Source: Candidatus Woesearchaeota archaeon (GTDB taxonomy: Archaea; Nanobdellota; Nanobdellia; Pacearchaeales; GW2011-AR1). Taken from it: a stretch of 64,000 nt of DNA. This document shows positions 1-8,550 of the stretch, one piece after another. Position 1 is the stretch's first letter. Every line of letters begins with the position of its first letter. Location of the stretch: NCBI GenBank assembly GCA_964623495.1, contig CAZUTV010000002.1, forward strand, positions 18,789 to 82,788, in the 5' to 3' direction. Under the pieces are notes generated by a model that ran no database searches, had not been told where the DNA came from, and was given only the letters and a program-made list of their open reading frames with translations. Position numbers and translations under genes: made by a program.

Positions 1-628
1 TTTTAAGCCCATTAACCGAAAACCCATACTTCTTGGCCAGCTGAGTTAAAGAAATCTTTTGATTTAAGAAATCTTGAAATATCTCTTGCACAAGATAAGA
101 ATTTTCTGAGGGAATCAGTTTTTTCCCTTCAAATTTATATCCAAAGGGGGCTCTTGTTATCGGGCTTCCATCTCTGGCTTTTTTATCCATTGAAAATTTT
201 GTTCTTTCGCTGGTAACGTTTCTCTCAAACTCTGCAAAGGCGCTGATTATATGAAACATCAGTTTTCCAGAAGCAGAGGTTGTCTCTATCTTATCTTGAA
301 GAGAAACAAAATCAATCCCCCACTCTTTTATTCTTTCAATGGTTTCTAGCAAGTCTTTCAAGCTTCTAGAGAATCTGTCTAATTTATAGATAAAAATGGC
401 CTGAAATTTTCTTGATTCTGCGTCGGCTAACAAACTGACCATCGCCGGTCTGTGCTTAATATCTTTTGCTGATTTTCCTTCATCTTTGTATAATTTATAG
501 AGTTCATAACCAAGTGCCTTAACATAATTTTCTAGTGCCTCCTGTTGTGCGGCAAGAGAAATTCCTTGTTTTGCTTGTTCTTCTGTGCTAACTCGGGTGT
601 AAATCGCTGCGAGGGGTTTGTTTGTCAT
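1..628 (-). CDS. Large serine recombinase, N-terminal part (gene runs off the window start; C-terminus missing)
   Basis: Reverse-strand translation from the ATG at 628-626 gives MTNKPLAAIYTRVSTEEQAKQGISLAAQQEAL...DEGKSAKDIKHRPAMVSLL...IYKLDRFSRSLKDLLETIERIKEWGIDFVSLQDKIETTSASGKLMFHIISAFAEFERNVTSERTKFSMDKKARDGSPITRAPFGYKFEGKKLIPSENSYLVQEIFQDF. This is a canonical resolvase/invertase catalytic domain (RVST catalytic Ser, DxGxSA, RP, LDRxxRS, AEFER), followed by the PFGY...IF start of the 'recombinase' domain typical of large serine integrases. The start overlaps the upstream gene's stop (ATGA). The ORF track omits it because it is open at the window edge. Confidence 0.85.
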   Translation of the reverse strand, partial: MTNKPLAAIYTRVSTEEQAKQGISLAAQQEALENYVKALGYELYKLYKDEGKSAKDIKHRPAMVSLLADAESRKFQAIFIYKLDRFSRSLKDLLETIERIKEWGIDFVSLQDKIETTSASGKLMFHIISAFAEFERNVTSERTKFSMDKKARDGSPITRAPFGYKFEGKKLIPSENSYLVQEIFQDFLNQKISLTQLAKKYGFSVNGLK

Positions 629-1128
629 TTTAACTTCCTGCCTAAAAAACTCTCTAGATGTTTAATTTTGCTTCCTATTTTCATTTTATCGTCTTGTGTT
701 CTTAGGATTGCAATCTTGTAAATCTGTTCCAATTGATTTAAAGAAAGAATGTTTACTTTTATTCCGTAAAAATCTATTTTCTTAACTTCCTTGAAGAAAG
801 GATGACTATTGTTTTCGTATTGTTTTTCCGTCTTGTCAATTTCCACTTTTAATATGCCTTTTTTTACAATAAAACCATAAGGATAATGCTTAAACTTTAT
901 TTTACTCTTTTCTAATTGTTCGGCAATTTTTGAAAAGTACCTTGGCTGAACTAAAAGATCTATGTCATTAACTTTTAAATTTTGATCTTTAGTGTGATAA
1001 AAAGGTGAAAAACTACCATAAATTACTGGATTTGACTTGCATTTTTTGCAAACCTCAATAACTTGCTTTGCAAAGAGTATCAATTCCTTAAAATGCCCTT
1101 TGTTTTTCGGATAAAGATAGAGAGTCAT
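625..1128 (-). CDS. Minimal nucleotidyltransferase (Pol-beta superfamily; architecture and size resemble small antibiotic nucleotidyltransferases of the Lnu(A)/ANT(2'') type)
   Basis: 167 aa; the IYGSFSPFY...VNDIDLLV segment is a G[GS]x(9-13)DxD nucleotidyltransferase motif, followed by a short helical tail. Start and stop are coupled by 4-nt overlaps to both neighbours. Confidence 0.6.
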   Translation of the reverse strand: MTLYLYPKNKGHFKELILFAKQVIEVCKKCKSNPVIYGSFSPFYHTKDQNLKVNDIDLLVQPRYFSKIAEQLEKSKIKFKHYPYGFIVKKGILKVEIDKTEKQYENNSHPFFKEVKKIDFYGIKVNILSLNQLEQIYKIAILRTQDDKMKIGSKIKHLESFLGRKLK

Positions 1129-1562
1129 TTTAACACTTTTTCATAATAATAAAGACTTTCCCCCCTTCCAAAGTTTAACTTTTGTTTTAATTTTTGCATT
1201 TTTTTGTTAGAGGTTTGAACAAAACCGGTAAAATATTTTATTTTGTTTTTCCTCGCAATTTTTTCAGCCTCTTTAATTAAACTTGAAGCTATTCCCTTAT
1301 TTCTGTGGGCAGGATTAACATAGACATCATTAATAATTACCTGGGATACAGAAATCAAAATATGGGCGATGATAAAGCCAACCATCTCTTTTTCTTCTTC
1401 TGCGATTAAAACAAAATTTTCTTTGGTTTTAGTTAAAACGCTCTTTACCCACACTTTATCGTAATCCCCAATCTCAAAATTCCCCCCCTGCAGCTCTTTT
1501 GTACTAATCAGAATTCTGAACAATTCTTTTAAATCCGATATTTTTCCTTTGCGAATTTTCAT
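1125..1562 (-). CDS. GNAT-family N-acetyltransferase
   Basis: 145 aa; the acetyl-CoA motif A region is VYVNPAHRNKGIASSLIKEAEKIA (R-x-x-G-x-A). The size is typical of GNATs. Confidence 0.7.
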   Translation of the reverse strand: MKIRKGKISDLKELFRILISTKELQGGNFEIGDYDKVWVKSVLTKTKENFVLIAEEEKEMVGFIIAHILISVSQVIINDVYVNPAHRNKGIASSLIKEAEKIARKNKIKYFTGFVQTSNKKMQKLKQKLNFGRGESLYYYEKVLK

Positions 1563-2221
1563 ATCTCCACCCCCAACTTCAACAGCTGTTCAAACAGCTG
1601 TTTGTTGTCTTTGAACAGAATTGTTCTCATACCTAGCTTCTTAGCGGGAGTTAGGTTCCAGGGTTGGTTGTCTATAAAAATACAATTTTGGGCAGGGGTT
1701 TTCAGCTTTTTTAGGGCTAGCCCGTAAATCTCCGGATTTGGCTTTCTTAATCCAACATCACAGGAAATAAACACCTTATCAAATTTCTCCATATACTTTC
1801 TTTTTACCATTGCTTCTTTGCTTAGCCACCATTGGTCTGAAAGAACAGCTATTTTGTAGCCTTGTTTTTTAATCTTAAAGGCCAACCTATAGAGTTTTTT
1901 GTTTTGTTTAAAGTTCTTTCTATAAGATTTAATAACCAGCCATCTAAGATACCCTGGATGTACTTGGAGTTTTCTAGCCAGGGTTAAGACGGTTGTTTGC
2001 TCTGAAACCTTTCCCAGATAAGCATCAACATAGGTTGTTTCAATAGTGTCAAACCACTGATCTAAAGAAATCCTCAGTTTTTTGGCGATTCTTTCATGAA
2101 CCCCTAGGCTAGAAGGATGTTTTCCTAATTTTATGGTGGTTGGGTTTTTTGGCAAGACCAAAACCCCTCCTATGTCGAAGATTACTGTCTTTACCGGGTT
2201 TCTTGTTTCTTTTTTTAACAT
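1559..2221 (-). CDS. HAD-superfamily hydrolase (subfamily IA-like; variant motif I FDIGGVL)
   Basis: 220 aa. The N-terminal VIFDIGGVL is a HAD motif I variant (DxG instead of DxD, as in epoxide-hydrolase N-terminal phosphatase-like HADs). It has a K-containing motif III and a C-terminal IFIDN motif IV. Confidence 0.6.
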   Translation of the reverse strand: MLKKETRNPVKTVIFDIGGVLVLPKNPTTIKLGKHPSSLGVHERIAKKLRISLDQWFDTIETTYVDAYLGKVSEQTTVLTLARKLQVHPGYLRWLVIKSYRKNFKQNKKLYRLAFKIKKQGYKIAVLSDQWWLSKEAMVKRKYMEKFDKVFISCDVGLRKPNPEIYGLALKKLKTPAQNCIFIDNQPWNLTPAKKLGMRTILFKDNKQLFEQLLKLGVEI

Positions 2222-2246
2222 TATTGCCTCTTTTACGTATTAAAAA

Positions 2247-2301
2247 CGTGCACTAAGGTTTATAAAGGTATGGTTCACGGGGTTTAAGGACACCCTTAGT
2301 G
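2247..2301. promoter_or_regulatory. Copy 1 of the GTGCACT(A/T)AGGTT motif, with its inverted partner CCCTTAGTG 38 nt away (split palindrome); lies in the promoter region of the HAD-GNAT-NTase-recombinase operon
   Basis: cgtgcactaaggttta at 2247-2262 and cccttagtg at 2293-2301 are reverse complements (CACTAAGG / CCTTAGTG). Confidence 0.45.
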
Positions 2302-2346
2302 AAGGGTTTTAAGCTTAATTTTGTGATTTTTGGGCAAAGGAAAGCC

Positions 2347-2700
2347 CTAAGGAGGGTGTTGAGAAAAATCAGTTAAATCTAAAACCTCAAAGCCTTGATC
2401 TTTTAACCTTTCTACAAGGGTGGTGGCTTTTCCTAGGGCAATGTCATGCAATCTCTATTTTGAAATAGACTCATCTGACAAAATATCTAAAACCCCTTCT
2501 GTTAGAGAAAAAACAACATATTGGCCATTTAAATGTTGAAGATGATATAAGGGGTCTGTTCTTGAAGGAGCGTGATTTAATATTGTTTGATGGGGAAGCT
2601 GAGGATAAGTGGATTCAAACAATTGAATAGCATAACTAACAAGAGCCTTACCAGACAAACATCCGGGAATTTCTCGAATAATAACCCTCTTAAAAGACAT
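2347..2700 (-). pseudogene. Hypothetical protein interrupted by an in-frame TAG (81-aa ORF continues in frame for 35 more codons after the stop)
   Basis: ORF 2455..2700 ends ...DESISK-TAG, then continues in the same frame as RLHDIALGKATTLVERLKDQGFEVLDLTDFSQHPP to a second stop at 2347-2349. TGA and TAA clearly act as stops in neighbouring genes, so recoding is unlikely. Confidence 0.3.
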
Positions 2701-2786
2701 TAAAGATAGATTGTGAATTATTTTTTAAAAATTTCTGTGATTCTCTGTAATTTTGTCCCAAATTTTTAGCAAATTTTTTGAGGCCG

Positions 2787-2810
2787 GGCGAAGATTGTGC
2801 ACTTAGGTTA
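2787..2810. promoter_or_regulatory. Near-perfect 19-bp palindrome CACTTAGGT-T-ACCTAAGTG (copy 2 of the GTGCACTTAGGTTA motif), 70 nt upstream of ORF 2882
   Basis: Positions 2790-2808 read cacttaggttacctaagtg. The two 9-bp arms are exact reverse complements around a single central T. Confidence 0.55.
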
Positions 2811-2881
2811 CCTAAGTGAAAATTGGCAGGTATTTTTAAGGTTTTGGATAGGCTTTTAAGGCGGTTTTTGGTAAAATAAGT

Positions 2882-3127
2882 ATGATAATTGAAGCATTAA
2901 TCCTTGCATGTATAGCCTGGTTTTTTGTAGCTTCTAGCTTATTTTTTAAGGTTTATTGGAAAGAGTGTGTTAAAACAAAAGTGAAGAAGATGAGTATGGG
3001 ATTTGGATCACTGCCTTATTTTTTAATGGTAAAGCAGGATAGGGGACTGAGTGTATGGGTTATGCAAGCATGGACAGCATTTGTTTTTCTATTATTCTTG
3101 ATTATTGTGAGAACAATAAGTGTATAA
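2882..3127 (+). CDS. Small hydrophobic protein (two predicted TM helices), hypothetical
   Basis: 81-aa ORF with two hydrophobic stretches; unusually Trp/Cys/Phe-rich. It is flanked on both sides by copies of the palindromic motif. Coding status is uncertain. Confidence 0.3.
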   Translation: MIIEALILACIAWFFVASSLFFKVYWKECVKTKVKKMSMGFGSLPYFLMVKQDRGLSVWVMQAWTAFVFLLFLIIVRTISV

Positions 3128-3128
3128 T

Positions 3129-3154
3129 CGTGCACTTAGGTTAACTTAGTGAAC
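3129..3154. repeat. Copy 3 of the GTGCACTTAGGTTA motif (imperfect palindrome CACTTAGGTTAACTTAGTG)
   Basis: cgtgcacttaggttaacttagtgaac starts 1 nt after the stop of ORF 2882..3127. Its 14-nt core is identical to copy 2. Confidence 0.5.
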
Positions 3155-3159
3155 AAAAG

Positions 3160-3760
3160 ATAATGGCTCGTAGAGGATAGAAATTCTTATTAATGCCCCC
3201 CCATAGGAAGATTATGTCGGAAATAGATCTTGCTAAAAGAGCAACAATACAATTTAAAACGCCTTTAACTGCCAAAGAATTAGAGAGAGATTTTGGGGGG
3301 AATTGGTTGTGAACAAGATTGTGAAGTGGAGTATACCTGGATACAGAGAATTAGGATAGATCCAACAACAAGCACAACCCCTTTTAGGAGAACCAGTCTC
3401 CAAACAAGCCAAGGAGAATTTAGTTCGAGAGGTTCACGACTATTTGTCAGTCTGCCTTTCGATCTCCAAGTAGGATATATTCAAGACTCACAAGACCCGG
3501 ACGATAGCAGGTATACAAGCCTTAGGTTTTTCATGGCTCCAGGAACTAGCGAAAGAGAAGTGCCTGCACCACAACTAGAGTTCATTGATGCTGCGAGAGA
3601 CTATTTCTGCAGATCACACTATTGGAAAAAAGAAGACACTATTCCAGAAGATTCTGACCCATAAGCCATAACCCATGATCTAAGCGGGCTAAATCTCGGT
3701 TTAAACTCCAAAAGATGTGTCGTAAAGGATGTTTGAACCCATGTTTTTCAATTTTATCGG
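3160..3760. other. GC-enriched, non-coding-looking segment (candidate structured RNA or decayed foreign DNA)
   Basis: Visibly higher G+C than surrounding DNA. The only long ORF (3293..3664) encodes a T/S/R/P/D-rich product unlike the K/I/L/E-rich proteome here. The reverse strand is full of stops. No RNase P, SRP or tRNA signatures were recognised by eye. Confidence 0.25.
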
Positions 3761-3788
3761 CGGGAAAAATCCTTGATTGATGTAATCT

Positions 3789-4352
3789 TAAACAGGTGTT
3801 TGAAGATGGTTTTTTAGCCTTACTGGGTGTTTAGGGGTGTTTTTTGGTGTTTTAAACAGGTGTTTATCTGTTAAATTACCTCTTTAAACGGGTTTTTTGG
3901 GGTATTTTTTGAGTAAAAAGAAGATTTTCTATGTCTCTTAATTAATGTAATAAAAAGGAGGAAAACCCACCTTTGTCCTCGTAAAAACAAAAGGTTTTTA
4001 AATAAGGAATATTTAGAAGAATTATGTTTGGGTGGTTATTTGGAAAAAAAGAGGCAAAACGTGTCGAGGAAGACACTAAAAGAGGTTTTGAGGGAGTCAA
4101 AAAAGACATAACTGCCTTGACGGGGTGGATCAAACACCTTAATTCTGAGCTAACAATGCAAAAAAAAGAACTTGAAGACATAAAGGTTTTTTTGTCGTCG
4201 GTTCAAGAAGACGTTGAGGGTGTCAAAAACGTGATCTCAATAATAACAGAGGTTAAACCAAATAAGGTGTTTAAAACAACCAAACGGGTGTTTAAGAAAC
4301 AAACGGGTGTTTATCCTGTTCAAACAGGTGTTCAAACGGGTGTTCAAACACC
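3789..4352. repeat. Array of AAAC(A/G)GGTGTT(T/C) near-palindromic repeats (at least 9 copies), partly intergenic and partly inside ORF 4024..4647
   Basis: Intergenic copies lie at about 3789-3801, 3825-3832, 3834-3853, 3853-3865 and 3885-3898. In-ORF copies lie at 4264-4273, 4282-4293, 4300-4311, 4321-4332 and 4333-4352; the last three form a 12-nt tandem repeat GTTCAAAC(A/G)GGT encoding VQTGVQTGVQT. Confidence 0.6.
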
Positions 4353-4647
4353 AAATTTAAGCCAATTTTCAGTTACTGAAAGAGCTATTTTGTTAATACT
4401 ATTAAATACTGACATGAAATTAAGTTACGAAGATTTGGGGGCTATGCTCGGAAAAGAAAAATCAACTATTAGGGGGCAGATAAATAGCATAAGGCAAAAG
4501 GGAGAAAACTTGATTGAAGAGGTCATGGAAAAGAACGGGAAAAAGAGGGTGTTTGTGCCTGAAGAAATGAAAGAAAAAATACTAAAAAAATCGAAAGTGA
4601 GAGTTGAAAAGAGTAAAAAAGGGGAAAAATCTGGGGAAAACCTATAA
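4024..4647 (+). CDS. Coiled-coil / low-complexity repeat linker / C-terminal winged-helix DNA-binding protein (paralog of 4909..5625)
   Basis: 207 aa with three parts. The N-terminal ~60 aa are heptad-like (ITALTGWIKHLNSELTMQKKELEDIKVFLSSVQEDVEGVKNV). The linker contains TGVQTGVQT repeats. The C-terminal wHTH-like segment is SVTERAILLILLNTDMKLSYEDLGAMLGKEKSTIRGQINSIRQKGENLIEEV, followed by a basic tail. Confidence 0.6.
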   Translation: MFGWLFGKKEAKRVEEDTKRGFEGVKKDITALTGWIKHLNSELTMQKKELEDIKVFLSSVQEDVEGVKNVISIITEVKPNKVFKTTKRVFKKQTGVYPVQTGVQTGVQTPNLSQFSVTERAILLILLNTDMKLSYEDLGAMLGKEKSTIRGQINSIRQKGENLIEEVMEKNGKKRVFVPEEMKEKILKKSKVRVEKSKKGEKSGENL

Positions 4648-4682
4648 AAAATGAAATTTCGAGGTTTAAAAGAGGTAAAAAA

Positions 4683-4892
4683 GACAAAAGTGAGAGTTAA
4701 ATTCGGGTTTTTTTTGTAAAATTTGTTTGAAAAGGGGGCATAAAAACAAAAAGTGAGAAAAAATAAGGAATTCGGGGGAGGAATAAGAAAGAGAAAGAAA
4801 TAAATTTTAAGATTTTAGGGCTTAAAAGGCCAAAAATGAGGGAAATAGAGAAAAAATAAAAGAAGAACAAAGAGACAAAAGTAAAAATTCGG
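4683..4892. repeat. Purine-rich divergent intergenic region with three iteron-like copies of ACAAAAGT(G/A)A(G/A)A...AATTCGG
   Basis: Copies read gacaaaagtgagagttaaattcggg (4683-4707), aacaaaaagtgagaaaaaataaggaattcggggg (4745-4778) and gagacaaaagtaaaaattcgg (4872-4892). They sit between the divergent paralogs 4024..4647 (+) and 4909..5625 (-). Confidence 0.5.
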
Positions 4893-4908
4893 TTAAACGA
4901 AAAAACAC

Positions 4909-5625
4909 TTATAAATCTCTTAGTTGGATTAAAACCGATAGAGGCGCTATTTTTTTAAGGTTTTTTGAGATAGAAAGGTGAATTTGTTTGTTATTTACCT
5001 TTATTTTGGATATAGGGATGCCTTTATTTATAAGTTTCCCGACGTAATCCCTGATCGAGCTTTCTGTGAGGTTTAATCTTTGGGCCAATACCCGGTAATC
5101 TATTTCCTTGCCTTCCTCGTCAAGCTGATAGATCAGAGAAAACACCGCCCATTCCTGATCTGTGAGATTCTTGAATTTTAAGCGGATTTCTTTTTTTAGA
5201 GAATCTAAAGAATCTAGAATCTCTGCGGCGTCCTCAATGGGATTTTCTAACGATTTTTGGGGATTTTGGGTCTGTTGGTTTGTCTGTTGGTTTGTCTGTC
5301 TGTCTGTTGGAACCCCTTCATTTCCTATGGAGATCCCTTGTTTTTCGTCTTTTTGGGGCTTAAAAAGGAGATTATCTGCTGGAATAAAGGGCATGTTTGT
5401 GGATACTTTTTGAGGGTGTGTCGAAGAGCTATCTTGGACCGGGGGCAAAGCCAAGGGGGCGATTTCTTGAAATTTTTTAGAAACTTTCAAAAGACCTAGG
5501 GATTCTGTGACTTCTTTTAGCTTGCTGTTAATCTCTATCATACATTGGGTAATAGAGGTTAGGGCTTCTTTTAAAGAATCTATGTCTTGCTTCACTTTTT
5601 GGAATGCTTCTTTTATAGCGTCCAT
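4909..5625 (-). CDS. Coiled-coil / repeat linker / C-terminal winged-helix protein (paralog of 4024..4647)
   Basis: 238 aa. The N-terminal coiled coil reads MDAIKEAFQKVKQDIDSLKEALTSITQCMIEINSKLKEVTESL. The linker has QTNQQTNQQTQ, encoded by a 12-nt tandem repeat at 5268-5310. The C-terminal wHTH reads LTDQEWAVFSLIYQLDEEGKEIDYRVLAQRLNLTESSIRDYVGKLINKGI. Domain order is the same as in 4024..4647. Confidence 0.6.
   Translation of the reverse strand: MDAIKEAFQKVKQDIDSLKEALTSITQCMIEINSKLKEVTESLGLLKVSKKFQEIAPLALPPVQDSSSTHPQKVSTNMPFIPADNLLFKPQKDEKQGISIGNEGVPTDRQTNQQTNQQTQNPQKSLENPIEDAAEILDSLDSLKKEIRLKFKNLTDQEWAVFSLIYQLDEEGKEIDYRVLAQRLNLTESSIRDYVGKLINKGIPISKIKVNNKQIHLSISKNLKKIAPLSVLIQLRDL
5268..5310. 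repeat. Tandem 12-nt repeat (CAAACCAACAGA on the coding strand) inside ORF 4909..5625
   Basis: gtctgttggtttgtctgttggtttgtctgtctgtctgttgg; it encodes the QTNQQTNQQTQ linker. Confidence 0.6.
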
Positions 5626-5664
5626 AAAAAAAATATTTGAAGGAGGTATAAAAATTTTAAGGTG

Positions 5665-5943
5665 TTAAAGAAGATGGTTTTGTCTTTGCTTATAAAGGGT
5701 ATAGGTGTGGTCTGTTAGGGCCCACCTGGATCTTTTGGAATAAACAACCCCTTTTGGGCTTTTCTTAACCTCTAAAACAAAATTTTTCTTTTTTAAAGAG
5801 AGAAGGAGGGATTTCACAAATTCTTCATCCCTAGCAATCTCTTGGGCTATTGTAAAGGTAAATGCTGACTTAGGGGAAATAGAATAAAGGTAAGCAAGAA
5901 TTTGCTCTAAAATCTTGTCTCTTTTTTTGTCGGAAATCTTCAT
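5665..5943 (-). CDS. Small winged-helix (MarR/PadR-like) transcriptional regulator
   Basis: 92 aa; KILEQILAYLY...IAQEIARDEEFVKSLLLSLKKKNFVLEV...GVVYSKRSRWALT fits an HTH plus a beta-wing with a conserved Trp. Confidence 0.55.
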   Translation of the reverse strand: MKISDKKRDKILEQILAYLYSISPKSAFTFTIAQEIARDEEFVKSLLLSLKKKNFVLEVKKSPKGVVYSKRSRWALTDHTYTLYKQRQNHLL

Positions 5944-5984
5944 GAATCATTAAGCACTTGGGGATTTAAAACCCTTTAGAAAGA

Positions 5985-6395
5985 TTATTTGTCTTGCTTT
6001 TTAAATGTGGGCATTGGAATATGTAAAGGCAATCCCATATCCTCTTCTAATTGCAGGGCCTTCAGGCTTGATTTTTTTATAATTATGTTAAAGAGGGTAA
6101 TATTAAACTCTTCTGGAATCTTTTTATCTTTCCAGTTTTTTAAGACTTCTTTAGAAAGTTTAGGGTCCACTGCAAGAAGCAGGCTGCCGCTTATCTCCAG
6201 CTTTGCAAAACCCGGATCATAGGAGATAACAAAAGAGTATTTAATCCCTAAAAGTTCCTCTCTTAACTTAAAGACATCTGAATCAACGCTTTCAATTTCA
6301 AGAACATTGATCTGTGTGTTGATCTTAAGGTTTTCTGGCTTATTTGAAAGCTTTTCAACACTTATCCTATCAAAATTAAAACCAATTATTTTCAT
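5985..6395 (-). CDS. Hypothetical protein
   Basis: 136-aa ORF with a K/I/E-rich composition typical of this genome; no motif recognised. Confidence 0.45.
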   Translation of the reverse strand: MKIIGFNFDRISVEKLSNKPENLKINTQINVLEIESVDSDVFKLREELLGIKYSFVISYDPGFAKLEISGSLLLAVDPKLSKEVLKNWKDKKIPEEFNITLFNIIIKKSSLKALQLEEDMGLPLHIPMPTFKKQDK

Positions 6396-6505
6396 TTTAT
6401 TAAAATCGAAGGAGTATTTTTAAAGATTTGTGTTTTTTGTGAAAAGAAAAAGAGCAGATGCTTGTCTTAAATAAAAAATACTCTCATTAAGGAATATGTA
6501 GAAAA

Positions 6506-6766
6506 TTATATCAAATCCTCTTCAGAAACAATGATAAAGTCACCAATAGCGATTATGGCACTATAAGGCACAAGTAAGTCCCCGGAAGAAGTCTTTTCAA
6601 GGTTAAGGTTTCTGGTATATAAGGTTGAGTCGCGAATAACAAGGTTAATAAGCTCGCCAGAACGAGTTTCAAAGGTTATGTCCCTAACAAATCCAAGCCT
6701 TTTTCCCTCTTTTGTGACTATCATTTTACCGACAAGGGCATTGAATGGGTTTTTGTTTTCTTGCAT
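6506..6766 (-). CDS. PRC-barrel domain protein
   Basis: 86 aa; LVGKMIVTKEGKRLGFVRDITFETRSGELINLVI followed by LVPYSAIIAIGDFIIV matches the archaeal PRC-barrel pattern. Confidence 0.5.
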   Translation of the reverse strand: MQENKNPFNALVGKMIVTKEGKRLGFVRDITFETRSGELINLVIRDSTLYTRNLNLEKTSSGDLLVPYSAIIAIGDFIIVSEEDLI

Positions 6767-6879
6767 GGTAATTTTAGAGGTAATTCATTTATAAACTTTT
6801 CTGTAAATGTATATAGATTTAAGGAGATATAGGTCATAACACTAAGAGGTTAATAAGAAAATTTGAAAAGAGGGAAAAC

Positions 6880-7290
6880 ACACCCACCCCTTCTTTTCTT
6901 ATAGAAACCTTTATAAAGAAAAATTTAACTTTTTTATGTTTTTATTTTATTTTTATGATTTTCTATAGTATAGTATATATATTATTTATTTTTATTAAAA
7001 AATATAAAAGATATTGATTTATTTGAGCACATTAACTTATTTTAAAAATGATTTAATTAATTTAGAAGGTATTAAATAATTGGGAAAGGCAAAAAGAACT
7101 CCAGCTAAACCAAAATAAGCTTTTCCACTAGAAATTTAGGTGTTTTTCTTTTTGAGTGGTTATGATACTTTAAATAAACCCCCCTTTATTTTTCGTTAAT
7201 AATTTTCCAAAGGAAAAGTTTTCCATCGGAAATAATAGTGTGGGTAATGGGCTTTTTATAAGGCTTTCACACCAAAATTTTTAAAGGGGT
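6880..7290. promoter_or_regulatory. Predicted chromosomal replication origin (oriC): AT-rich unwinding region plus three ORB-like elements upstream of orc1/cdc6
   Basis: An extremely AT-rich tract lies at about 6900-7070. Three ORB-like elements of form TTCCA-N3-GGAAA follow: TTCCACTAGAAA (7123-7134), TTCCAAAGGAAA (7205-7216) and TTCCATCGGAAA (7221-7232). The last is followed by a G-rich GTGTGGGTAATGGG. cdc6 starts at 7300. Confidence 0.6.
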
Positions 7291-7299
7291 TGAAATAAG

Positions 7300-8550
7300 A
7301 TGAAAAAGGATATAGATCATATTTTTGATTCTTTTGATAAGGAATCTCTGTTTAGAGACAAATCCCTATTACAGATTAACCATATTCCTAGCGAGATAGT
7401 TCATAGAGACGATCAAATTAAACAAATTGCGTCTATACTTGCTCCTGTTTTAAGAGGGGAGAAAACAAGCAATTTATTCCTTTATGGCAACACCGGTACA
7501 GGAAAGACCCTTTCTGTTCTATTTGTCAAAGATCATTTAATTAAAAGAGCGGATAAGAACGACGTTAAACTTAAAATAGAATATCTTAACTGCAAACTTA
7601 AGAAGGTTTCTGATACAGAGTACAGGATTCTTGCAGAGCTTATTAAGAAGTTGGGAAGTGAGGTGCCTCAAACAGGGCTGCCAACAGAAGCGGTTTATAG
7701 TAAATTTATTGATGTTGTTGATAAAGATAAACAGCTTGTTGTGCTTATTTTAGATGAGATAGACCAGGCCGTGAAGAAGATCTCGAGTGATTTCCTTTAC
7801 AATTTAACAAGATTAAATTCAGAACTCTCTAAATCTCAAATCTGTCTTGTTGGAATAAGCAACGATTTAACGTTTTTAGAGGAGCTTGATCCAAGGGTGA
7901 AGAGTTCGCTTTCAGAGGAAGAGATAGTCTTTTCCCCCTATAATGCACTCCAACTTCAAGACATCTTAACAAAGAGGGCCGAGAAAGCCTTTAAAGAGGG
8001 GGTTGTACAGCAGGGCGTTATTGCCAAATGTGCGGCTTATGCTGCCAGAGAGCATGGAGATGCGAGAAGAGCATTGGATCTGCTGAGGATAGCAGGAGAA
8101 CTGGCTGAGAGAGAGACTTCTAAAAAAATAACTTTAAAGAATATTGATGACGCCAATCAAAAAATTGAAAGAGATAAGATCTTAGAATCTATAAAAATTC
8201 AGCCCAAACAATTTCAGCTTGTTTTATACGCGATCATTAAACTTCAAGAAGCAAGAAAAAAAGGTGGGGGTGGGCAGAAGACCCTTAATTCTGGGACGAA
8301 AGGAGAGCCCATTTTTACTGGCGATGTTTTTGATTCATACCAGCAGTTATGCCTGCAGAACAAGTTAGAGGTTTTGACACAGAGAAGGGTTGGAGATATT
8401 TTGCAGGATTTTGATATGCTCGGAATAATCAGTGTGAGGGTGATTTCAAAAGGGAGAGGGGGAAGAATGAGGGAAATTAAACTAGCTATCTCTGATCCAA
8501 TTGTTGGCAAGGCAAAAGAGATCATTCAAGAATCATTAAATTACCATTAA
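7300..8550 (+). CDS. cdc6: Orc1/Cdc6 replication initiator (AAA+ ATPase with C-terminal winged helix)
   Basis: 416 aa. Walker A is LYGNTGTGKT, Walker B is LILDEID, sensor and wH regions are present, and the gene sits beside ORB elements. Confidence 0.92.
   Translation: MKKDIDHIFDSFDKESLFRDKSLLQINHIPSEIVHRDDQIKQIASILAPVLRGEKTSNLFLYGNTGTGKTLSVLFVKDHLIKRADKNDVKLKIEYLNCKLKKVSDTEYRILAELIKKLGSEVPQTGLPTEAVYSKFIDVVDKDKQLVVLILDEIDQAVKKISSDFLYNLTRLNSELSKSQICLVGISNDLTFLEELDPRVKSSLSEEEIVFSPYNALQLQDILTKRAEKAFKEGVVQQGVIAKCAAYAAREHGDARRALDLLRIAGELAERETSKKITLKNIDDANQKIERDKILESIKIQPKQFQLVLYAIIKLQEARKKGGGGQKTLNSGTKGEPIFTGDVFDSYQQLCLQNKLEVLTQRRVGDILQDFDMLGIISVRVISKGRGGRMREIKLAISDPIVGKAKEIIQESLNYH

Follow-up and report, generated by a model that had tools for sequence, protein, structure and literature searches.

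A conserved chromosomal neighborhood between a ribosomal-protein operon and oriC in Woesearchaeota-type archaea, with a candidate array of small gene cassettes

The 64,000-nucleotide stretch of a Candidatus Woesearchaeota archaeon genome analyzed here (contig CAZUTV010000002.1; hereafter, the window) begins with about 5950 nucleotides in which a serine recombinase operon, three classes of short repeats and several small genes for putative DNA-binding proteins, two of them named here A and B, lie beside a putative replication origin (oriC) and cdc6. We give a probability of about 55% to the three-layer explanation set out below, in which positions 1-5950 are the left half of a lineage-specific chromosomal neighborhood that extends from the L13-S9 ribosomal-protein operon to oriC/cdc6 in DPANN archaea of the Woesearchaeota/Pacearchaeota type; that this is a conserved neighborhood of the chromosome, and not an insertion, is very probable. 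A first-pass annotation of the same DNA had considered an integrated plasmid or virus-like replicon, which is not borne out, the block being conserved beside oriC, its gene B having no relative among the viral contigs of IMG/VR, and Rep, partition and capsid genes being absent; its other wording, an undescribed origin-associated DNA-binding module, is supported as a description.

Conservation of the neighborhood

To the left of the window, the contig, which an exact-protein look-up located as an 81.9-kb contig of Logan run SRR12686701, carries a 177-aa open reading frame (ORF) past the recombinase gene and then the ribosomal operon S9-L13-L18e-RpoD-S11-S4-S13. With this operon on the left flank and oriC on the right, the supposed island is therefore the ~7 kb between them, and the leftward extension, in which the first-pass annotation had proposed to look for the other end and for att-like duplications, arrived at the ribosomal-protein operon instead of the border of a replicon. 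The fixed part of the block is composed of the features listed below, where L-numbers (L002, L085, and so on) denote loci of relatives, L085 being the nearest relative of the window (B 85% identical).

4024-4647 (+): gene B, 207 aa, modeled as a coiled-coil helix (residues 3-77), a disordered QT[G/A]V linker (78-110) and a winged helix (117-187)
4909-5625 (-): gene A, 238 aa, modeled as a coiled-coil helix (residues 2-51), a disordered linker and a MarR/Lrs14-like winged helix (129-237)
5665-5943 (-): small basic protein of 92 aa, putative winged helix, 55-66% identical in relatives
5985-6395 (-): conserved protein of 136 aa, 46-52% identical in L002-L004 and 39-59% across nine relatives, in the same position
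6506-6766 (-): PRC-barrel protein of 86 aa (Pfam PRC, 1.1e-8), 73-83% identical in L002-L004
6767-7299: putative oriC, the AT-rich 533-bp spacer between the PRC gene and cdc6, 24% GC, with boxes resembling origin recognition boxes (ORB) at 7205 and 7221
7300-8550 (+): cdc6, with Cdc6 Pfam domains; PolD genes follow downstream

The order B-A-92-aa gene-136-aa gene-PRC barrel-oriC-cdc6 is kept in 53 of the 56 loci with enough flank, out of 80 loci fetched, and relatives of B are present in 351 species-level genomes (the scan used one genome per species). The first-pass annotation had itself proposed the comparison with related DPANN genomes and had set such invariance of the core block against a mobile element. 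In three relatives with contigs of up to 777 kb, PolD, cdc6, PRC, the 136-aa and 92-aa genes, A, B, the recombinase and S9/L13 follow one another as in the source genome; two of these have a recombinase of ~255-267 aa, and the third has the tyrosine recombinase XerA with a remnant that retains only the recombinase domain (RD-only). The core proteins are 46-83% identical to the orthologues of relatives, which, at the same position, is consistent with vertical descent. Full-length cluster representatives, from metagenome-assembled genomes of Nanoarchaeota, Pacearchaeota and Woesearchaeota, number 2,284 for A (50-56% identity) and 2,454 for B (about 70%).

No relative of B was found among 2.9 million contigs of IMG/VR, a search confined to viral sequences, and Pfam, NCBIfam and PADLOC gave no gene for Rep, a partition ATPase (ParA/SegA), capsid or terminase and no match to defense families. 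The GC content across positions 1-6000 (33-38%) is like that of the rest of the window, with no compositional break. Dispersal of the repeats through the genome, which the first-pass annotation had thought conceivable, was not observed in the 64 kb or in the loci of relatives: all three repeat classes are confined to the locus and kept across the lineage, and none is a generic genomic motif. ARAGORN detected no tRNA gene in the window, and Rfam returned nothing at gathering thresholds in the whole window and nothing at E<=1 over 2200-7300, by which a noncoding-RNA reading of the GC-rich block described below and of the repeats was ruled out. The four further occurrences of the contig (five samples in all) are identical and include no strain-level variant; the metagenome scan gave no relative above 72% protein identity, and a literature search found no description of the locus.

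The 25-bp dyad motif

Upstream of B, small and mostly unrelated ORFs are separated by the motif GTGCACTTAGGTTA, a 25-bp imperfect dyad present in a single orientation. Its 25-bp extent was set by information content, which gives the consensus TTGTGCACTTAGGTTAGCTTAGTTA with a nearly invariant left half. Exact copies of GTGCACTWAGGTT are found at 2248, 2797 and 3130 and nowhere else in the 64 kb, even at 2 mismatches. The sites and the units between them are as follows.

2248-2306: site 1, a dyad in split form that overlaps the recombinase-operon promoter, seen as an inverted repeat in the sequence and made up of GTGCACTAAGG (2248-2258), the TATA box TTTATAAA (2259-2266), GTTCAC (2273-2278) and CCCTTAGTGAAGGG (2293-2306)
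2344-2700 (-): cassette 1, an 81-codon ORF (2455-2700), then TAG and 36 more open codons, from translation
2795-2819: site 2, dyad TTGTGCACTTAGGTTACCTAAGTGA, which includes a 9+1+9 palindrome at 2800-2818
2882-3127 (+): cassette 2, an ORF for an 81-aa predicted membrane protein, with a 79-aa ORF in L085 and no family match
3128-3152: site 3, dyad ATCGTGCACTTAGGTTAACTTAGTGA, an exact motif copy
3214-3664 (+): cassette 3, a frameshifted gene read as 32 aa + 123 aa, with an intact 156-aa homologue in L085
3674-3696: a possible degenerate fourth copy, CATGATCTAAGCGGGCTAAATCT, weak and aligned by eye only

The motif is specific to the locus. Of the 175 exact CACTWAGG cores counted in 1.25 Mb of related loci, 162 fall in the 2 kb preceding B, nearly all of them with the same orientation, and an independent metagenome set replicated this specificity, with 80 of 89 cores in the same zone. 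A locus has 0 to 5 exact-core copies, most often 2, which lie within 2 kb, and the array is about 3-5 kb from oriC. At the spot equivalent to the degenerate fourth copy, L085 has a good motif copy directly after its 156-aa ORF. Site 1 has counterparts as well: the same split dyad is found upstream of the recombinase operon in L002, L016, L017, L018, L042, L047 and L071, and in the window 26 nt separate the start codon of the first operon gene (HAD) from the near (2248) end of site 1, and about 37 nt separate it from the TATA box.

Six of the nine arm positions of the dyad mirror each other across one central base, the median being 6/9 pairs. Of the three palindromic copies announced by the first-pass annotation all are present, while the perfect 19-bp palindrome, which is site 2, turned out to be an outlier, as 9/9 symmetry is found in only 1 of 225 distinct copies. 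Across these copies there is no base-pair covariation (pair 4/14 is anti-covarying, odds ratio 0.40), and hairpin z-scores are weak save for one window copy (z -2.75). A partial dyad without covariation therefore has the appearance of a protein-binding site rather than of a hairpin, and the RNA or DNA hairpin reading, in which a single copy folds well, was ruled out.

Probable exchange of the units between dyads

Motif copies are spaced 300-500 bp apart, and the ORFs between them mostly point towards the recombinase. As a rule, the stop codon of an ORF directly adjoins the motif, the next start codon being a variable 60-120 nt away, and some cassette ORFs run through the motif, which yields the peptide KANLSAN. 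Across genomes these ORFs are mostly unrelated, and many encode small membrane proteins. Some families recur at differing array positions: c0 (a DUF5654-like membrane protein), c8 and c14 (tiny proteins with two transmembrane segments), c4 (zinc ribbon plus coiled coil), c6 (HNH-like) and c20 (exonuclease-like), the c20 cassettes documenting that motif orientation is independent of gene strand.

Comparison of close relatives bears on how these units turn over. Between the window and L085, the segment 2317-2773, which comprises cassette 1, has no nucleotide similarity, and the flanks on both sides (HAD/site 1 and site 2/cassette 2) are 74-78% identical. In the pair L109 and L122, whose B genes are 97.9% identical and whose flanks are 95-98% identical, a ~330-bp unit exactly between two motif copies has been swapped; identity is lost at the right-hand border of one motif and regained 2 nt ahead of the next CACT core, 3 nt inside the 25-bp element, and the swapped units encode proteins of ~30% identity as estimated by eye. 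Among 34 close pairs, defined by a B nucleotide identity of 85-99.5%, blocks of similarity end at motif edges in 25% (left) and 17% (right) of cases, against 2.5% and 1.9% at random, about ten-fold more. The units between copies are therefore read as exchangeable cassettes bounded by the dyads, a conclusion that is probable. The motif-edge signal weakens as divergence grows.

These results narrow the accessory island of the first-pass annotation. Variable content is present at ~2250-3700 and in the GNAT and NTase-like genes described below; it forms a site-delimited cassette array inside a conserved platform and not an inserted replicon. The gene with an in-frame stop is real as described (81 codons, TAG, 36 open codons), yet cassette 1 has no homologue that would mark it as a pseudogene and no Pfam or PADLOC match, and is either a short gene or a pseudogene. 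The GC-enriched noncoding block (3290-3700, 43.6% GC against 36.3% for the window) is GC-rich but proved to be the frameshifted gene of cassette 3, both termini of which match the intact 156-aa protein of L085. Its frameshift coincides with a run of six G at 3295-3300, which could be a real pseudogene lesion, a slippage-prone switch or an assembly error; the contig has been reported from five samples.

Some further observations were made on cassette ORFs. Unrelated read-through proteins share (K/N)ANLSA(N) near their C-termini (L004:3559-3571, L073, L044, L051 and L066; clusters c4/c12), and the ORFs of L109 and L122 end inside the motif, which takes in their last five codons (MTKVA) and their stop. 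The c6 proteins, of ~155 aa, have two CxxC pairs and an HNH-like motif (DLHHLD...CPNHH), with weak Pfam matches to HNH_2 and RecA-dependent nuclease, and are encoded on the recombinase-proximal side of many arrays (L007, L008, L010, L013, L019, L020, L033, L039-L041, L050, L062, L080); they could be candidate nucleases for DNA transactions at the locus. A 123-aa ORF that seemed to change strand from the source genome to L002 raised the idea of a recombinase-driven inversion, which was discarded, as the two proteins are unrelated and all motif copies are direct repeats.

The recombinase operon and the recombinases of relatives

The genes to the left of site 1 form one operon.

1-628 (-): serine recombinase, N-terminal 209 codons, last gene of the HAD-GNAT-NTase-recombinase operon
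625-1128 (-): nucleotidyltransferase (NTase)-like gene, 167 aa, with weak Pfam matches (NTP_transf_5 0.054, Aminoglyc_resit 0.084)
1125-1562 (-): GNAT acetyltransferase, 145 aa (Pfam Acetyltransf_1, 4.8e-15), not present in L085
1559-2221 (-): HAD hydrolase, 220 aa, first gene of the operon (Pfam Hydrolase, 9.8e-14)

The part of the recombinase inside the window matches Pfam Resolvase at 1.4e-41 and the full protein at 2.6e-41, in agreement with the first-pass annotation, which had also called it large; the full protein on the source contig is 258 aa long and ends after the recombinase domain (PF07508; 1.7e-7, 31.9 bits against a cutoff of 21.1, residues 180-250), without a zinc-ribbon or coiled-coil domain. 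The catalytic motifs YTRVSTEEQ, in which Ser-14 lies, and DRFSRS are kept, the nearest solved structure is the catalytic domain of TP901-1 integrase (1.9e-27), and there are partial NCBIfam matches to CcrC, CcrB and XisF. Judged by its sequence, the enzyme is derived from large serine recombinases. Orthologues of 255-267 aa, 78-83% identical, occupy the same position beside ribosomal protein S9 in 9 relatives.

The overlaps behind the translational coupling proposed for the operon were confirmed, the junctions HAD/GNAT, GNAT/NTase-like and NTase-like/recombinase each being a 4-bp ATGA overlap. The view of the three upstream genes as cargo holds for two of them. GNAT and the NTase-like gene are both missing from L085, where an unrelated 101-aa zinc-ribbon gene occupies the NTase-like place, and are therefore variable inserts in the recombinase operon. 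HAD homologues, in contrast, recur in an operon with XerA or a serine recombinase in ~20 relatives, mostly at 45-54% identity (range 29-54%), and the HAD gene is therefore a semi-conserved member of the neighborhood and not cargo.

In relatives, the slot adjacent to S9 holds either a full short serine recombinase or the RD-only protein, which has 130-210 aa and consists of an N-terminal CxxC zinc ribbon and the recombinase domain alone, without a catalytic domain; it is 50-70% identical to the C-terminal half of the recombinase. The tyrosine recombinase of many loci is archaeal XerA (234.7 bits against an NCBIfam equivalog cutoff of 220) and adjoins the array in 34 of all 80 loci. Where the flank reaches S9/L13 (47 loci), XerA with an RD-only protein is found in 28, a full serine recombinase alone in 8 and with an RD-only protein in 10, neither enzyme in 1, and XerA together with a serine recombinase in 0, so that 46 of the 47 have a recombinase that is catalytically competent by sequence. 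The two states differ even among fairly close relatives, as between L006 and L008/L030 (83% B identity). From this mutual exclusion, and from the presence of one enzyme in 46 of 47 loci, it is inferred that the array keeps a competent recombinase and that the two types are interchangeable.

The RD-only genes (L003:14494-15036 (-), L004:6804-7208 (+) and about 40 other loci) are always beside S9/DUF4389 and usually immediately next to XerA on the same strand; the family has the look of a DNA-binding module exapted from a recombinase. ORFs of 174-177 aa that lie between S9 and the recombinase gene (L001:15821-16354 (+) and L002:13580-14104 (+)) share an N-terminal YVG(I/M)DESNHG and otherwise have no BLASTP similarity to each other and no Pfam, NCBIfam or PADLOC match. 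The metagenome contigs L155 and L157, otherwise 100% identical, differ by a transposon of 4,190 bp (L155:420-4609; position 4619 in L157), bounded by terminal inverted repeats (GGCTTTGTAAA...) and flanked by the 10-bp target duplication CGTTTAAAAC. The transposon encodes an 814-aa protein of N6-methyltransferase/restriction type as well as a 421-aa transposase-like one, and its insertion point is 10 bp away from the promoter TATA box of the recombinase operon.

Genes A and B and their repeat arrays

Genes A and B are convergent. AlphaFold2 models reached a predicted local distance difference test (pLDDT) score of 76.5 for A and 70.5 for B, from alignments of 36-39 sequences, with values of 81-94 in the winged helix-turn-helix (wHTH) segments. 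The Foldseek comparison recommended by the first-pass annotation for these 238- and 207-aa proteins gave winged helices of MarR/Lrs14-type fold: against the PDB, A matched ST1889 at 2.5e-4 (30% identity over about 100 residues) and MarR at 5e-4, and B matched MepR at 1.1e-3 and AbfR2 at 1.4e-3, with MarR, AbfR2 and ST1889 all at about 1e-3. By sequence, the wHTH matches stay below family thresholds (HTH_11 22.5 bits vs 25, HTH_24 20.9 vs 21.9, Sta1 18.2 vs 80), and searches of the PDB, Pfam, NCBIfam and PADLOC with A, B, the 92-aa and the 136-aa proteins gave nothing above threshold. The models suggest that A and B would be dimerizing coiled-coil/winged-helix DNA-binding proteins.

The two genes had been described as a divergent paralogous pair with coiled coil, linker and wHTH. 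This architecture was modeled for both; their orientation is convergent, and their sequences are only weakly related, with no significant BLASTP match and an hhalign probability of 78.6% over 31 HTH columns only. Clear paralogy was consequently downgraded to a common architecture with related recognition helices, which are alike by inspection (STIRGQIN vs SSIRDYVG).

The noncoding elements around the two genes are the following.

3787-3900: noncoding array of AAACAG[G/C]TGTTT / GGTGTTT sites, about 120-240 nt before the B promoter
3986-4004 (+): promoter-like element AACAAAAGGTTTTTAAATA, with a TATA centered ~26 nt before the B ATG, seen by eye in all 16 loci compared
4648-4908: purine-rich B-A spacer, with copies of ACAAAAGTGAGAGTT at 4684 and 4747 and a degenerate one at 4875, and with TTCGGTTAAACGAA at 4888-4901

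The element AACAAAAGGTTTTTAAATA is the probable promoter of B, the transcript of which would be leaderless or have a short leader. Copies of the upstream array begin at 3790, 3826, 3836, 3846, 3854 and 3886, and in every relative the region upstream of B contains palindromes of the form AAACAG(0-2 nt)CTGTTT as well as GGTGTTTAAR repeated directly every 10 bp. The first-pass annotation had recognized two families of short repeats, one of them entering coding sequence, which is correct: the AAACRGGTGTTT cluster runs into gene B, and AAGTGAGA also has one coding copy. Of the 8 AAACRGGTGTTT sites with 0-1 mismatch in the window, 7 lie within 3790-4345, three noncoding and four in gene B; at <=2 mismatches there are 34 in the window against 14.9 expected. 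In 80 relatives, GGTGTT averages 2.3 per locus in the 400 nt before B, occurs also inside B, and elsewhere amounts to ~0.05 per 200 bp. The palindrome AAACAGCTGTTT, which is the common form of the B-upstream motif in relatives, also occurs with a neighboring CAACAGCTGTTC within the 3' end of the HAD gene (1580-1610, peptide KQLFEQLL), the sole other site with 0-1 mismatch in the 64 kb outside the B region.

The linker of B is encoded by tandem 12-bp copies of the upstream motif (4261-4345), QT[G/A]V being coded by CAAACAG[G/C]TGTT, so that the alternation of Gly and Ala in the protein is the G/C alternation of the noncoding sites. Across 80 species, the repeat codons are nearly fixed in comparison with the rest of B: GGT 98% vs 30%, ACA 94% vs 62%, and CAA 97% vs 67%. 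Furthermore, the hexamer GGTGTT is read in two frames within B, as KVF/RVF and as GV. In the linker of A, (ACAG)n / ACAGACAAACCA (5269-5310) encodes TDRQTNQQTNQQT (TDRQ/TNQQ repeats), again with codon preferences unlike those elsewhere in A (GAC 100% vs 28%, AAC 100% vs 29%, CAG 71% vs 23%). Such near-invariance of synonymous codons points to a constraint at the level of DNA or RNA, and is most simply explained if the linker codons double as binding sites. On sequence grounds, there is about an even chance that A or B binds these arrays.

The ACAAAAGTGAGAGTT copies of the spacer match a coding copy at the 3' end of B (4591-4605, peptide KVRV), and AAGTGAGA is found in the whole window only at 4595 (coding), 4688 and 4751; in 80 relatives it is restricted to +400..+800 from the B start, with ~0.93 coding and 0.92 noncoding copies per locus, always on the same strand. 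A diversity-generating retroelement, suggested by the pairing of a noncoding with a coding copy, was rejected, there being no reverse transcriptase and units of only 12 nt. The element TTCGGTTAAACGAA stands just past the A stop codon, relatives having GTTAWTCGGT... 8-30 nt after the stop in most of 15 loci inspected by eye, and may be a terminator or a further binding site.

A proposed explanation and its alternatives

The findings can be arranged in three layers. The first is a fixed core of the PRC barrel, the 136-aa and 92-aa proteins and the convergent A and B, which would bind the arrays around and inside their own genes: AAACAG[S]TGTTT (AAACAGSTGTTT) before B and within the linker of B, (ACAG)n within the linker of A, and AAAGTGAGAGTT both at the 3' end of B and between the two genes; this binding would autoregulate the two genes and may form an extended protein-DNA complex about 2-3 kb from the origin. 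The second layer would be a small gene-cassette array, with direct-orientation 25-bp dyads that delimit mostly one-ORF modules. The dyad would serve as crossover and binding site of the adjacent site-specific recombinase, here the 258-aa serine enzyme, the recombinase domain of which would read the dyad half-sites, and the split dyad over the operon promoter would give autoregulation, as res does for Tn3/gamma-delta resolvase. The third layer is the recombinase module, either a full short serine recombinase or XerA with the zinc-ribbon RD-only protein, which suggests that catalysis was taken over by a non-orthologous enzyme. An action of the neighboring recombinase on the dyads seems to us a little short of an even chance. 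A farther-reaching scheme, an integron-like, origin-fixed platform for gene capture in which the recombinase domain reads the dyad, catalysis comes from a fused serine domain or a separate XerA, and the whole is coupled to the A/B-linker site arrays in an origin-proximal nucleoprotein complex and shuffles small, maybe host-facing membrane-protein genes, is offered as a tentative and rather unlikely proposal.

Several results weigh against the three-layer explanation. The unrestricted all-pairs breakpoint test was null, with 3.0% of endpoints near motifs vs 3.6% at random, which is explained by the fading of the edge signal with divergence; the restriction to close pairs and the test windows were chosen post hoc, after the examples, and the endpoints are not independent. 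Some breakpoints are 20-45 nt or more off the motif (L035/L038, L006/L090, L061/L159), the units swapped between L109 and L122 encode distant homologues, such that localized diversifying evolution is possible there, and the sole strain-level insertion at the locus (L155/L157) is an ordinary transposon and not motif-mediated. About ten loci with the array and rearranged left flanks have no recombinase within 7-10 kb, which weakens the link between array and recombinase. The dyad centers on a single bp, unusual in view of the 2-bp center of serine-recombinase crossover sites, and the motif is identical whether a serine or a tyrosine recombinase adjoins, for which a common DNA-binding factor fits better than two unrelated chemistries on one site. 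Lastly, codon invariance in tandem repeats could partly stem from homogenization driven by slippage.

One alternative, which we regard as doubtful, is that the dyad is only a transcription-factor operator or promoter-proximal element of a local regulon, an element that persists among rapidly evolving genes and whose binding partner is the 92-aa protein, one of A and B, or a recombinase domain that does no more than bind DNA; small genes would then turn over by ordinary insertion, deletion and homologous recombination, and similarity would only seem to stop at the motif. The split copy that brackets the TATA box ~37 nt before the first gene of the recombinase operon fits this explanation, as do a partial palindrome centered on one bp, typical of operators of wHTH dimers, the occurrence of the same motif with either type of recombinase and in the ~ten loci without one nearby, the catalytically dead RD-only protein kept in many loci, and the null global test. 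It accounts poorly for a motif that usually abuts the 3' end of an ORF at a variable 60-120 nt from the next start, that is read straight through by some ORFs (KANLSAN) and that keeps a fixed orientation whatever the gene strand; exact motif-to-motif swaps between very close pairs with flanks 95-98% identical, the ~10-fold edge enrichment and the competent recombinase in 46 of 47 loci reaching S9 likewise speak against it. In another explanation, the dyads are dif-like Xer sites and the array is a stack of small elements of the IMEX/pdif kind, XerA being the enzyme and the serine recombinase a later substitute. The ~25-bp dyad does resemble dif in size, modules are flanked by repeated sites, and in 28 of the 47 loci, or 34 of the full 80, the array has XerA, which passes its equivalog cutoff, beside it. 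Archaeal dif, however, consists of one site, with a 6-bp spacer between 11-bp arms, distant from oriC and not adjacent to xerA (PMC2958812), while the sites of the locus are multiple, oriC-proximal and symmetric about one bp without a 6-8-bp asymmetric spacer, and the window and 17 other loci have no XerA nearby, which makes this explanation quite improbable.

The coding repeats could also be explained as low-complexity linkers kept uniform by slippage and codon preference, their likeness to the noncoding repeats being a coincidence. The linkers are indeed predicted to be disordered, and their tandem 4- or 12-nt units vary in copy number between species; yet the synonymous positions are the same across 80 species and not just within one genome (GGT 98% vs 30%, GAC 100% vs 28%), the same 12-mer with the same variable G/C position forms the non-tandem noncoding array upstream of B in every relative, and GGTGTT is used in two reading frames within B, so we consider coincidence improbable. 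As for an integrated plasmid or virus-like replicon that landed beside oriC with iterons, Rep-like or partition wHTH proteins and an integrase, its likeness to the locus is superficial, consisting of repeats by wHTH genes, a site-specific recombinase and a partly variable content (GNAT, NTase-like, cassettes). The same block in the same position in 53 of 56 relatives and in 351 species, the 46-83% protein identity indicative of vertical descent, the lack of an IMG/VR relative of B, of Rep, ParA, capsid and terminase genes, of defense-family matches and of a GC break, and the positional conservation of the recombinase itself render it extremely unlikely.

The conserved-neighborhood reading and the cassette scheme built on it have several implications. 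If the dyad-bounded units are driven by a recombinase, the locus would join integrons and Xer/dif modules as a third type of gene-cassette platform, and in host-dependent archaea with tiny genomes small variable membrane proteins are likely interface molecules. The exclusivity of the serine recombinase versus XerA plus RD-only protein is a natural experiment in how site recognition and catalysis are uncoupled or exchanged. Few uncharacterized genes beside oriC in the lineage are as conserved as A, B and those of the 92-aa and 136-aa proteins, which are therefore candidates for origin-linked regulation or chromosome organization in DPANN archaea, for which, to our knowledge, no factor of such kind is known. 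Arrays of sites in coding linkers, visible as frozen synonymous codons, are a useful annotation signal, and repeats, wHTH genes and a recombinase are together insufficient as evidence for a mobile element.

Comparison with known systems

Like an integron, the locus is a single chromosomal platform of short, mostly one-ORF modules split by imperfect-palindromic sites in direct orientation; the cassettes vary and shuffle between close relatives, and a site-specific recombinase stands at one end. Exchangeable one-ORF cassettes bounded by sites are found here in the array maps, in L109/L122, in the window versus L085 and in the close-pair breakpoints. Unlike an integron, the locus uses a short serine recombinase or XerA plus RD-only protein in place of IntI, a tyrosine recombinase with a specific extra segment, and the XerA of relatives scores 215.6 against the cutoff of 265 for integron integrase (TIGR02249), in two split stretches. 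The attC site is an imperfect palindrome of 57-141 bp, recognized as a single strand folded into a hairpin, with a conserved structure and a variable sequence, while the site of the locus is a 25-bp, sequence-conserved dyad without hairpin covariation. Diversity of attC sites in sequence and structure has been described for archaeal integrons by Ghaly et al. 2022 (PMC9668308). Further differences are the tiny arrays (1-5 sites), the recombinase downstream of the array and not upstream with a Pc promoter, and the fixed platform beside oriC.

With the Tn3/gamma-delta resolvase-res and Hin/Gin systems the locus shares, by its sequence, a candidate pairing of a serine recombinase with short dyad sites and a site copy over the recombinase's own promoter, where the enzyme could double as its own repressor. 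It differs in that its DNA-binding domain is the recombinase domain of large serine recombinases, and not a C-terminal HTH, and in that its sites delimit several gene modules, and not one res or invertible segment, with no transposase. All sites of the locus are direct repeats, and therefore excision or integration is expected, not inversion. The large serine recombinases (TP901-1, Bxb1, CcrA/B/C, XisF) have the same catalytic domain and PF07508 recombinase domain, the latter after a long alpha-E helix; they are ~450-700 aa long, in contrast to the 258-aa protein, which lacks the zinc-ribbon/coiled-coil that controls synapsis and directionality and is chromosomal and vertically conserved, not carried on a phage or SCC element.

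In Xer/dif modules (IMEX, Acinetobacter pdif), as in most relatives, a Xer recombinase accompanies small modules flanked by sites of ~25-28 bp, but the sites of the locus are direct and not inverted repeats, and the source genome has a serine recombinase instead. Archaeal dif has been reported as a single site 122-142 degrees from oriC and not beside xerA (PMC2958812); against this single 28-bp site of the terminus region, the locus has 1-5 copies within 2 kb, ~3-5 kb from oriC.

Plasmid Rep-iterons, and parS sites in parB/spo0J, resemble the A/B region in their clusters of short sites beside and inside the gene of a DNA-binding protein near an origin, and the 10-12-bp repeat period would suit cooperative binding, as in Rep-iteron systems. 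The locus, unlike them, has no Rep initiator or ParA/SegA ATPase, its proteins combine a coiled coil with a MarR/Lrs14-like winged helix, its sites are placed in the disordered-linker codons of both genes, and it is chromosomal and conserved in the lineage. In the models, the C-terminal domains of A and B superpose on MarR/Lrs14 regulators (ST1889, AbfR2), from which the two proteins differ by their long N-terminal coiled coil and a repeat linker of 30-75 residues.

Origin-side genes and the putative oriC

The 92-aa protein had been presented as a third small wHTH protein, a status for which the matches are weak (EarA at E 0.028 and MarR-type PDB entries at E about 0.5), and the 136-aa protein has no match in Pfam, NCBIfam or the PDB. 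The PRC-barrel protein also matches NCBIfam YlmC/YmxH at 8.2e-6, below the cutoff; PRC-barrel proteins are reported to function in archaeal cell division (bioRxiv 10.1101/2023.03.28.534520). The spacer between the PRC gene and cdc6 (6767-7299) is plausibly oriC, as the first-pass annotation had it: besides its low GC content, it contains two ORB-like boxes of TTCCAnnnGGAAA type with 3-4-nt spacers (TTCCAnnGGAAA in relatives), and ORB-type boxes are 12.7-fold enriched in this spacer across the loci of 57 relatives. The cumulative GC skew, slightly negative over 1-2000, climbs almost monotonically from ~2000 to 60000, which is consistent with an origin near the left end of the window.

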